A DNA stretch of 49,610 bases from Escherichia coli. Its GTDB lineage: Bacteria > Pseudomonadota > Gammaproteobacteria > Enterobacterales > Enterobacteriaceae. Below, piece by piece: positions 27,856 through 44,325 of the stretch (the stretch's first letter is position 1; each line of letters opens with the position of its first letter). The stretch lies in assembly GCF_003334305.1 (NCBI RefSeq), contig NZ_QOWS01000028.1. One strand, 5' to 3'. The translations under genes were made by a program, and so were the position numbers. The notes under the pieces were generated by a model, which worked only from the letters and a program-made list of their open reading frames with translations, had not been told where the DNA came from and did no database searches.

Positions 27856-30800
27856 ATGAATAAGAAATTTAAATATAAGAAATCGCTTTTAGCGGCTATT
27901 TTGAGTGCAACCCTGTTAGCCGGTTGTGATGGCGGTGGCTCCGGATCTTCCTCCGATACGCCGCCTGTAGATTCTGGAACAGGGTCTTTGCCGGAAGTGA
28001 AACCTGATCCAACACCAAACCCGGAGCCGACGCCTGAGCCAACGCCGGACCCAGAACCTACGCCGGAACCGACACCTGATCCTGAGCCAACACCAGAACC
28101 GGAGCCAGAACCTGTTCCTACGAAAACGGGTTATCTGACTCTGGGCGGAAGCCTGCGGGTAACTGGTGATATCACCTGTAATGATGAATCCAGCGATGGC
28201 TTTACCTTTACACCAGGCGACAAAGTCACCTGTGTGGCAGGGTACAACACGACAATTGCTACCTTCGACACCCAGTCAGAAGCTGCGCGTAGCCTGCGTG
28301 CGGTTGAAAAAGTGTCGTTTAGTCTTGAGGACGCGCAAGAACTGGCGGGTTCCGACAACAAGAAAAGCAATGCGCTCTCGCTGGTCACCTCCATGAACAG
28401 TTGCCCGGCGAATACAGAACAGGTGTGCCTGGAGTTCTCCTCGGTGATCGAGAGTAAACGTTTCGACTCGCTGTATAAGCAAATCGATCTGGCACCGGAA
28501 GAGTTCAAAAAGCTGGTCAATGAAGAGGTGGAAAACAATGCCGCGACCGATAAAGCGCCATCCACTCATACTTCACCGGTCGTGCCCGCCACCACTCCGG
28601 GAACAAAACCGGATCTAAACGCTTCCTTCGTGTCGGCTAACGCGGAACAGTTTTATCAGTATCAACCCACTGAAATCATTCTCTCTGAAGGTCGACTGGT
28701 CGATAGTCAGGGGGATGGTGTTGTTGGTGTCAACTATTACACCAATTCCGGCCGTGGTGTAACCGGAGAAAACGGGGAATTTTCCTTTAGTTGGGGGGAA
28801 ACCATCTCCTTTGGCATCGACACTTTTGAGCTTGGTTCTGTGCGTGGTAACAAGTCGACTATTGCATTGACTGAACTGGGTGATGAAGTTCGCGGGGCAA
28901 ATATCGATCAGTTGATTCACCGCTATTCGAAGGCTGGACAAAATCACACGCGTGTAGTTCCGGATGAAGTGCGCAAGGTTTTTGCTGAATATCCCAACGT
29001 GATTAACGAGATTATCAATCTCTCGTTATCCAATGGTGCGACGCTGGGGGAAGGTGAGCAAGTCGTTAATCTGCCTAACGAATTTATCGAGCAGTTTAAG
29101 ACGGGTCAGGCCAAAGAGATCGATACCGCGATTTGTGCGAAAACCGATGGTTGTAACGAGGCTCGCTGGTTCTCGCTGACAACGCGCAATGTTAATGACG
29201 GCCAGATTCAGGGCGTTATCAACAAGCTGTGGGGCGTGGATACGAACTACAAATCTGTCAGTAAGTTCCATGTATTCCATGACTCTACCAACTTCTATGG
29301 CAGCACGGGTAATGCGCGCGGTCAGGCGGTGGTGAATATCTCCAACGCGGCCTTCCCGATTCTGATGGCGCGTAATGATAAAAACTACTGGCTGGCGTTT
29401 GGCGAAAAACGCGCCTGGGATAAAAATGAGCTGGCGTACATTACGGAAGCGCCTTCTCTTGTTGAGCCGGAAAACGTTACGCGCGATACCGCCACTTTCA
29501 ACCTGCCGTTTATTTCGCTGGGGCAAGTCGGTGAGGGCAAACTGATGGTTATCGGTAACCCACACTACAACAGCATTTTGCGTTGCCCGAACGGTTACAG
29601 CTGGAACGGGGGTGTTAATAAAGATGGGCAGTGTACGCTCAACAGCGACCCGGATGACATGAAGAACTTCATGGAGAACGTGCTGCGCTATCTGTCCGAC
29701 GATAAATGGACGCCGGACGCGAAAGCCAGCATGACCGTAGGCACCAACCTGGATACTGTCTATTTTAAACGTCATGGTCAGGTTACAGGAAACAGCGCTG
29801 CGTTCGACTTCCATCCGGATTTTGCGGACATCTCTGTTGAGCATTTAAGTAGCTATGGCGATCTCGATCCGCAGGAAATGCCGCTGCTGATCCTTAACGG
29901 CTTTGAATATGTGACTCAGGTGGGTAACGATCCTTATGCAATCCCGCTGCGTGCAGATACCAGCAAACCGAAGCTGACTCAGCAGGATGTGACCGATCTG
30001 ATCGCCTATCTGAACAAAGGTGGATCGGTGCTGATCATGGAAAACGTGATGAGCAATCTTAAGGAAGAGAGCGCGTCTGGTTTTGTGCGTCTGTTGGATG
30101 CCGCAGGTCTGTCGATGGCACTGAACAAGTCGGTAGTAAATAACGATCCGCAAGGGTATCCGAACCGCGTTCGTCAGCAGCGCGCAACGGGCATTTGGGT
30201 CTATGAACGTTATCCTGCCGTAGATGGTGCGCTGCCGTACACCATCGATAGTAAGACAGGGGAAGTTAAGTGGAAATATCAGGTAGAAAACAAACCTGAT
30301 GACAAACCGAAGCTGGAAGTTGCCAGCTGGCTGGAAGATGTAGATGGCAAACAGGAAACGCGTTATGCCTTTATTGATGAGGCCGATCATAAAACAGAGG
30401 ATTCTCTGAAGGCTGCGAAGGAGAAAATTTTCGCCGCGTTCCCGGGGCTGAAAGAGTGTACTAATCCGGCATATCACTATGAGGTCAACTGCCTGGAATA
30501 TCGTCCTGGCACGGGGGTTCCGGTTACTGGTGGCATGTATGTTCCACAGTATACGCAACTAAGCCTTAACGCCGACACTGCAAAAGCGATGGTGCAGGCT
30601 GCGGATTTAGGCACCAACATTCAGCGTCTGTATCAGCATGAGCTCTACTTCCGGACCAATGGTCGCAAAGGTGAGCGTCTGAGCAGCGTCGATCTGGAAC
30701 GTCTGTACCAGAACATGTCGGTCTGGCTGTGGAACGATACGAGCTATCGTTATGAAGAAGGCAAAAATGACGAGCTGGGCTTTAAAACGTTCACCGAGTT

Positions 30801-43788: not shown

Positions 43789-44325
43789 ATGTTACGCGAT
43801 AAATTTATTCACTATTTTCAGCAATGGCGTGAACGCCAGTTAAGCCGTGGCGAACACTGGCTGGCACAACACCTGGCGGGGCGTTCTCCGCGTGAAAAGG
43901 GCATGTTACTGGCAGCGGTGGTGTTCCTGTTTAGCGTCGGATATTACGTCCTCATCTGGCAGCCGTTGAGCGAACGGATAGTACAACAGGAGACAATATT
44001 GCAGCAACTGGTGGCGATGAACACCAGACTGAGGAGCGCCGCGCCGGATATTATTGCGGCGCGAAAATCCGCCACAACAACGCCTGCGCAGGTATCGTGG
44101 GTTATCAGTGACAGTGCTTCCGCGCACTCGGTAGTCATCAAGCGGATAGCCGAGCGTGGGGAGAATATTCAGGTCTGGATAGATCCGGTGGTGTTTAATG
44201 ACCTGCTGAACTGGTTAAACGCGCTGGATGAAAAGTATGCGCTGCGGGTGACACAAATTGATGCCAGTGCTGCTGAGAAGACTGGGATGGTGAATGTGCA
44301 GCGGCTGGAGTTTGGACGGGGGTAA
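43789..44325 (+). CDS. gspM: T2SS inner-membrane protein GspM (178 aa)
   Basis: Single N-terminal TM (MLLAAVVFLFSVGYYVLIW); last gene of the gsp operon (remembered as yghD in K-12). Confidence 0.9.
   Translation: MLRDKFIHYFQQWRERQLSRGEHWLAQHLAGRSPREKGMLLAAVVFLFSVGYYVLIWQPLSERIVQQETILQQLVAMNTRLRSAAPDIIAARKSATTTPAQVSWVISDSASAHSVVIKRIAERGENIQVWIDPVVFNDLLNWLNALDEKYALRVTQIDASAAEKTGMVNVQRLEFGRG

Follow-up and report, generated by a model that had tools for sequence, protein, structure and literature searches.

Does this Escherichia coli strain carry a whole type II secretion system of the beta type (T2SS-beta), able to export the mucinase SslE, or a damaged version of it such as the one found in strain K-12? 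The question is raised by positions 27856-44325 of a 49,610-nucleotide (nt) stretch of E. coli DNA (contig NZ_QOWS01000028.1 of assembly GCF_003334305.1), which we call the window. Alignment, protein family searches and comparison with reference strains indicate that these 16.5 kb are very probably the chromosomal sslE-pppA-gspS(beta)-gspCDEFGHIJKLM operon, complete, held under purifying selection and following the established model of SslE export. The locus is already well known and ordinary, and it had been correctly identified in a reading of the letters made without database searches (the sequence-only reading): the assignment to the known SslE-secreting T2SS-beta held in its gene names, gene order, motif and coordinates.

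Gene content and integrity of the locus

Fourteen open reading frames (ORFs) occupy the locus, each consisting of whole codons with zero internal stops, and they run on one strand in the order sslE, pppA, gspS-beta (yghG), and gspC through gspM (yghD), as follows:

27856-32421, + strand: sslE (yghJ), a 1521-amino-acid lipoprotein zinc metalloprotease, the T2SS-beta substrate
32561-33370, + strand: pppA, prepilin peptidase, GspO-type, peptidase A24
33436-33846, + strand: gspS-beta (yghG / AspS), pilotin lipoprotein for the secretin
33864-34823, + strand: gspC, TTG start, inner-membrane platform protein contacting the secretin
34853-36913, + strand: gspD, GTG start, outer-membrane secretin
36913-38406, + strand: gspE, secretion ATPase
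38406-39629, + strand: gspF, polytopic inner-membrane platform protein
39646-40101, + strand: gspG, major pseudopilin
40105-40668, + strand: gspH, minor pseudopilin
40665-41036, + strand: gspI, minor pseudopilin
41033-41632, + strand: gspJ, minor pseudopilin
41635-42612, + strand: gspK, minor pseudopilin (tip)
42609-43787, + strand: gspL, inner-membrane platform protein docking GspE
43789-44325, + strand: gspM (yghD), inner-membrane platform protein

The sequence-only reading had described this set as complete and apparently intact, and all 14 ORFs were recovered where it had placed them. The extensive stop/start overlaps that it reported correspond to five junctions between gspD and gspL, with D/E and E/F overlapping by 1 nt and H/I, I/J, and K/L by 4 nt, while the other junctions from the pilotin gene to gspM are spaced by 1 to 29 nt.

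Family searches support the assignments. Twelve of the 14 proteins exceed curated NCBIfam cut-offs with essentially end-to-end coverage, and the full core set (GspC, D, E, F, G, H, I, J, K, L, and M) is present in one cluster. The matches of the core proteins are GspC to NF007242 (residues 1-319 of 319; 738.5 bits, cut-off 561), GspD to TIGR02517 (552.6 bits, cut-off 351), GspE to TIGR02533 (708 bits, cut-off 630), GspF to TIGR02120 (489.1 bits, cut-off 424; residues 4-405 of 407), GspG to TIGR01710 (192 bits, cut-off 88.85), GspH to TIGR01708 (187 bits), GspI to TIGR01707 (89.2 bits), GspJ to TIGR01711 (176.4 bits), GspK to NF037980 (287.5 bits), GspL to TIGR01709 (182.5 bits), and GspM to NF007274 (residues 1-178 of 178; 403.3 bits, cut-off 352). 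The NCBIfam search returned no match for PppA or the pilotin, both of which were resolved by Pfam and the latter also by PDB. PppA matches A24_N_bact (4.5e-34) and Peptidase_A24 (4.6e-25) and contains two CxxC pairs, Asp143/145, and Asp208 in G-M-G-D, the catalytic residues having been assigned by inspection. The pilotin matches T2SSS_2 (1.5e-16), is identical at 111 of 112 positions to chain P of PDB 5ZDH, the cryo-electron microscopy complex of GspD and pilotin from enterotoxigenic E. coli (ETEC), and also aligns with PDB 4FTF (E = 4.7e-6). Its lipobox is LSGC with Ala at position +2, which is predicted to direct sorting to the outer membrane.

The pairing of an AspS/GspS-beta-type pilotin with a Vibrio-type secretin identifies the system as T2SS-beta and not T2SS-alpha. 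GspD scores 1382 bits against chain A of 5ZDH, 730 bits against PDB 5WQ8, and 545 bits against 5WQ7; we take the last two to be the GspD of Vibrio cholerae and the GspD-alpha of K-12, respectively. The expected motifs were also located in GspE, with a Walker A box (GPTGSGKS, 258), an Asp box (VVMVGEIRD, 323), a His box (TGHL, 344), and a tetracysteine zinc site (CPDC, 391; CPAC, 424). The prepilin cleavage site G/FTLLE (the slash marking the cut) is found in GspG, GspH, GspI, and GspJ, while the GspK leader reads GMALVV and lacks Glu at +5, the usual state of this protein.

Alignment to the T2SS-beta of ETEC strain H10407 was used to search for frameshifts and premature stops, the finding that would have contradicted the claim of intactness, and none was found. 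PppA, the pilotin, and every Gsp protein have equal lengths in the two strains (13 of 13 machinery proteins), at identities of 95.5-100%; examples are GspD (686/686), GspE (496/497), GspJ (198/199), GspL (388/392), and PppA (97.0%). Ratios of non-synonymous to synonymous substitution rates (dN/dS), calculated against H10407 by the Nei-Gojobori method, range from 0 to 0.32 in the 12 computable machinery genes; synonymous differences are lacking in gspH, and sslE was left out of the calculation on account of its indels. The low ratios, and in particular the 37 synonymous and 0 non-synonymous differences in gspD, indicate sustained purifying selection on the machinery.

Several complete RefSeq E. 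coli chromosomes, among them those of A7, TUM1887, H15, A28, NCTC9088, and DETEC-E601, contain the entire locus at 100% identity, so chance is not an issue for its reality. In the RefSeq annotation of TUM1887, 14 of the 14 named coding sequences in the identical DNA are intact with no pseudogene flag. The closest genome match of the window is strain A7, a non-clinical isolate from orangutan faeces, to which the stretches 1-25000, 27856-44325, and 44326-49610 are each 100% identical. At least 80% of the locus is present in one place in 3,138 of 5,426 complete E. coli genomes (58%), which makes it a common accessory locus of the species, and the synteny of glcA, the locus, and the pheV site is the same in K-12, H10407, 536, and IHE3034. 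This prevalence, together with a system that is already published, bears out the view of the sequence-only reading that the locus is not novel. In genetic terms the strain is fully equipped to secrete SslE, a mucinase and vaccine antigen, and to display it, a capacity shared with about 58% of complete E. coli genomes, and the locus has little significance beyond annotation.

The sequence-only reading had given the locus as truncated in K-12, and alignment agrees: about 8.0 kb are lost there, beginning at the gspC stop codon and ending 216 nt inside gspL, an internal deletion that has been described previously (PMC3707838). In window coordinates the deletion spans approximately 34823-42824; gspD-gspK and 216 nt at the 5' end of gspL are absent from K-12, and what is left there consists of yghJ, pppA, yghG, yghF (gspC), yghE (the 3' part of gspL), and yghD. 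The two ends of the deletion meet within the gspC stop codon, at a TA microhomology of 2 nt (34821-34823 and 42823-42825). As the junction destroys this stop, K-12 YghF gains 12 C-terminal residues from the gspL remnant (331 versus 319 amino acids). An ambiguous gspC start was considered as another source of the 12 extra codons of K-12 yghF and rejected, since the TTG start is the same and the added residues are C-terminal, derived from the deletion junction; H10407 shares this TTG start as well. K-12 thus represents a degenerate state at this locus, and annotation based on K-12 under-describes the region.

SslE and its allele

SslE matches NCBIfam NF037973 (metallo_SslE) over residues 1-1521 with 3471.7 bits (cut-off 3000), falls in the SslE/AcfD subfamily NF037974, and matches PDB 23px over its full length (3407 bits). 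Its C-terminal part contains the Pfam domains Peptidase_M60 (1.8e-36) and M60-like_N (3.7e-11). The HEVGH motif that the sequence-only reading placed at 31768-31782 is exact and in frame (residues 1305-1309). It extends to HEVGHNAAETPLTVPGATE (31768-31824, + strand; residues 1305-1323), which fits the HEXXHX(8,24)E definition of the M60-like domain (PMC4014459). The zincin motif is conserved in K-12, H10407, 536, and IHE3034, and therefore in all five sequences compared, and its replacement (HEVGH to YVVGY) abolishes the mucinase activity of SslE in IHE3034 (PMC4014459).

The lipobox LAGC was likewise located as described (residues 21-24; 27916-27930 on the + strand with the codon that follows). 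The signal peptide MNKKFKYKKSLLAAILSATLLAG precedes the lipobox Cys24, which is followed by Asp25 and then by GGGSGSSS. Asp at position +2 is an inner-membrane retention (Lol-avoidance) signal in E. coli (PMC12802150).

The SslE sequence is 96.8% identical to that of K-12, 92.1% to 536, 89.5% to H10407, and 87.5% to IHE3034, which lies within the published identity range of 86-100% (PMC4014459). In bins of 100 residues, identity to the four reference alleles ranges from 70 to 100% and the nearest reference shifts along the protein; these swings suggest a mosaic gene shaped by recombination. Strain 536 carries SslE variant II and IHE3034 variant I (PMC4014459), and with five sequences and a mosaic profile the allele can tentatively be said to lean to the variant II side. 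It lies inside the known diversity of this candidate vaccine antigen.

Expression, export and alternative readings

Two non-coding stretches of the operon are relevant to its expression:

27371-27855, + strand: glcA-sslE intergenic region, with the glcA terminator hairpin at 27380-27406 followed by an AT-rich region upstream of sslE
32422-32560, + strand: sslE-pppA spacer of 139 nt with repetitive extragenic palindromic (REP)-like palindromes

Yang et al. 2007 (J Bacteriol 189:142) reportedly mapped the operon promoter, which was done in H10407, and binding of H-NS/StpA. In published work, which includes the characterisation of the operon and of its control by H-NS/StpA in H10407, the 14 genes are carried on one polycistronic mRNA, repressed at low temperature by H-NS and StpA and activated at 37 C by Fis. 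In the consensus scan, promoter-like matches numbered 5 against a mean of 12 in shuffles, and terminator-like matches were at chance (19 versus 20.6), the glcA and pheV-side hairpins being the informative exceptions. The sslE-pppA spacer is 139 nt long here and in strain 536 and 197 nt in K-12 and H10407, a 58-nt difference inside a polycistronic operon.

The expected mode of action follows the established model. A single mRNA would be transcribed from a promoter within the AT-rich stretch that precedes sslE, silenced by H-NS/StpA at low temperature and activated by Fis at 37 C, as known from the literature. SslE would be exported by Sec and lipidated at Cys24, and its Asp at +2 would keep it off the Lol pathway, waiting in the inner membrane, as proposed by analogy with PulA of Klebsiella. 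PppA is predicted to cleave the G/F leader of the pseudopilins GspG to GspK, the motifs and the peptidase domains being visible here; a requirement for pppA has been published for strains W and H10407, tested in the latter for secretion of the heat-labile toxin (LT) (PMC3707838). GspS-beta, with its Ala at +2 and presumed outer-membrane sorting, would escort GspD, which would assemble into the secretin channel, and GspE on the GspC/F/L/M platform would power assembly of the pseudopilus that pushes folded SslE through the secretin. SslE would then remain surface-bound by its lipid anchor or be released, and its M60-like domain (HEVGH...E) would degrade mucins, an activity published for other strains. 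Secretion of SslE by T2SS-beta has been demonstrated in the non-pathogenic strain W (PMC3707838).

What can be read directly from the DNA is competence, from which we infer expression, secretion, and mucinase activity in this strain. When the sequence-only reading called the locus a functional mucinase secretion system, the intact system stood and the word functional went too far, given that expression depends on temperature, nutrients, H-NS, Fis, and the strain. Nothing in the sequence contradicts the export reading, and four points limit it. The allele is only 87.5-92% identical to the IHE3034 and 536 alleles, whose mucinase activity has been demonstrated or implied; the regulatory region has about 17 differences from H10407; no promoter on the + strand was picked up ahead of sslE by a simple sigma-70 consensus scan; and SslE output is published to vary several-fold between strains with intact loci.

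In an alternative reading the locus would be intact and effectively silent, with H-NS/StpA repression unrelieved in ordinary growth and little or no SslE made. The region upstream of sslE is AT-rich (34.6% GC in the bin 27500-27999), and H-NS is published to repress sslE strongly at 37 C in EC958, where the locus is also intact and output is strain-variable. Strain W secretes SslE only in lysogeny broth at 37 C, with secretion undetectable at 30 C or in minimal medium (PMC3707838). However, the machinery genes are under strong purifying selection, which implies that they are regularly used in nature, and the glcA-sslE region is close to that of H10407 (approximately 96.5% identity), a strain that expresses the operon at 37 C. 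Of the 497 positions compared in this region, about 17 differ from H10407 and K-12, one 1-nt indel among them. We consider a silent locus improbable.

The machine might instead be functional and carry a main or additional cargo other than SslE, as with LT in ETEC. The same T2SS-beta has been described as secreting LT in H10407, so the machine is not restricted to SslE (PMC3707838). Yet the window contains no toxin gene or other candidate substrate, and sslE stands first in the operon, intact and conserved together with it, which makes this a quite improbable account of the present locus. Decay toward a K-12-like remnant, through a subtle lesion such as a frameshift, the loss of a start codon, or a change in a catalytic residue, can draw on the hypervariability of the pheV-adjacent region, on documented independent losses of T2SS-beta (PMC3707838), and on the K-12 deletion itself, but it was rejected and has a next to negligible chance of being right, as all 14 genes read through without a stop or frameshift, the machinery lengths equal those of H10407, the family models are matched over their whole length, every motif that was checked is there, and the TUM1887 annotation is free of pseudogene flags. 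A complete operon exporting SslE thus remains the preferred reading.

Surroundings of the locus and comparison with known systems

The conserved locus ends at the pheV tRNA site, beyond which the window enters a genomic island whose genes all lie on the - strand; a further region of interest lies upstream of the locus. The features concerned are as follows:

44437-44465 and 44474-44495, - strand: GC-rich hairpin and remnant of the pheV 3' end, where the conserved locus stops
44606-45448, - strand: DUF4942 gene
46227-46604, - strand: CbtA-family toxin
46694-47062, - strand: YeeU/CbeA-type antitoxin, pairing with the CbtA-family toxin
44496-49610, - strand: other island genes, namely DUF957, DUF5983, DUF987, RadC, an antirestriction protein, DUF932, and the start of an IS3 transposase at the window end
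10145-12291: LptF/LptG paralogues, in the region of a second K-12 deletion
12326-13498, - strand: serine-palmitoyltransferase-like enzyme, inside the second K-12 deletion region
14689-16410, - strand: fatty acyl-AMP ligase, inside the second K-12 deletion region

The pheV remnant is 22 nt long and lacks one base relative to K-12 pheV; it was found by eye and then confirmed, and an exact-match search for a pheV fragment gave no match because of this 1-nt deletion. ARAGORN found no tRNA in the window, and Rfam at gathering thresholds found nothing in 27000-49610. Homology to K-12 ends at 44495, inside pheV, and the remnant marks the far boundary of an island inserted at pheV, the distal arm of which occupies 44496-49610. 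Strains with a near-identical T2SS locus carry other cargo at this site, including an integrative and conjugative element (ICE) of the Salmonella pathogenicity island 7 (SPI-7) type in TUM1887, the K1 kps capsule cluster in IHE3034, and a large island rich in insertion sequences (IS) in H10407, which agrees with the reported hypervariability of the pheV site (PMC3707838). In TUM1887, a 78-nt tRNA-Ser is called at the position of the pheV remnant (24619-24696; window approximately 44474-44551), beside the SPI-7-type ICE. A tRNA-Ser is odd for a pheV site, and the call may represent a hybrid or mis-typed tRNA resulting from the ICE insertion.

Two observations concern the part of the window before glcA. 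A second K-12 deletion was recognised at 8438-16820, where 8.4 kb is replaced by IS5 in K-12. The genes of this region lie between approximately 7369 and 17923 and include, in addition to those listed above, an acyl carrier protein, an NAD-dependent epimerase/dehydratase, a YtfJ-family protein, and a flippase-like 'LPS biosynthesis protein'; together they look like a dedicated cluster for lipid synthesis and export. At the window start, bases 1-75 are not matched by anything in the intergenic region between hybG and yghU of K-12. An IS621 (IS110 family) lies directly outside this point in strain A7, so that bases 1-75 are probably the end of that element.

Among the known systems, the closest counterpart is the T2SS-beta of H10407 (yghJ-pppA-yghG-gspCDEFGHIJKLM), presumably also the source of the pilotin study and of the 5ZDH structure. 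The two loci agree in their 14 genes, gene order, junctions, and flanks (glcA and the pheV site). They differ in SslE (1519 amino acids in H10407 versus 1521 here, at the 89.5% identity given above), in the sslE-pppA REP spacer, which is 58 nt shorter in the present locus, and in the LT toxin genes, which are absent from the window. The K-12 remnant is alike in position and flanks, in SslE (96.8%), and in the pilotin, which is 100% identical, whereas gspD-gspK and the 5' end of gspL are missing and the gspC stop is lost. In E. coli W and enteropathogenic E. coli E2348/69 the system is the same one, and there SslE has been shown to be secreted and displayed on the surface, with gsp genes and pppA being required (PMC3707838).

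More distant relatives share parts of this design. The Eps system of V. cholerae, with AspS and the SslE homologue AcfD, is alike in its AspS-family pilotin (T2SSS_2) and in the SslE/AcfD subfamily NF037974 to which the substrate belongs; it is found in another genus and encodes a GspN (EpsN), whereas the present locus is without one. The absence of gspN follows from the layout, as gspM is followed by 148 nt (44326-44473) and then directly by the pheV remnant. The Pul system of Klebsiella resembles T2SS-beta in that a lipoprotein with Asp at +2, PulA, stays off the Lol pathway and reaches the cell surface through the T2SS. It differs in its substrate, a glycoside hydrolase, in its PulS-type pilotin, and in the dependence of PulA surface localisation on PulN (GspN) (PMC12802150), a component that T2SS-beta does not have.

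This last difference raises a question of mechanism. A study from 2025 showed that the T2SS lipoproteins of Acinetobacter, and PulA of Klebsiella, need the AsmA-like GspN to reach the cell surface; these GspN-dependent lipoproteins carry a Gly/Ser- or Asn/Asp-rich motif after the lipidated Cys, and E. coli E2348/69 is among the strains without gspN (PMC12802150). The mature start of SslE, C-DGGGSGSSS, resembles the Gly/Ser/Asp-rich sorting motif of such T2SS-dependent lipoproteins. It is conceivable, although in our view unlikely, that T2SS-beta delivers triacylated SslE by means of a substitute for GspN, either a housekeeping AsmA-like protein or a core Gsp component, that would shield the acyl chains. 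If the requirement for GspN is general, E. coli must have such a substitute for the acyl chains of SslE. This consideration holds for T2SS-beta loci at large and is not peculiar to the window.

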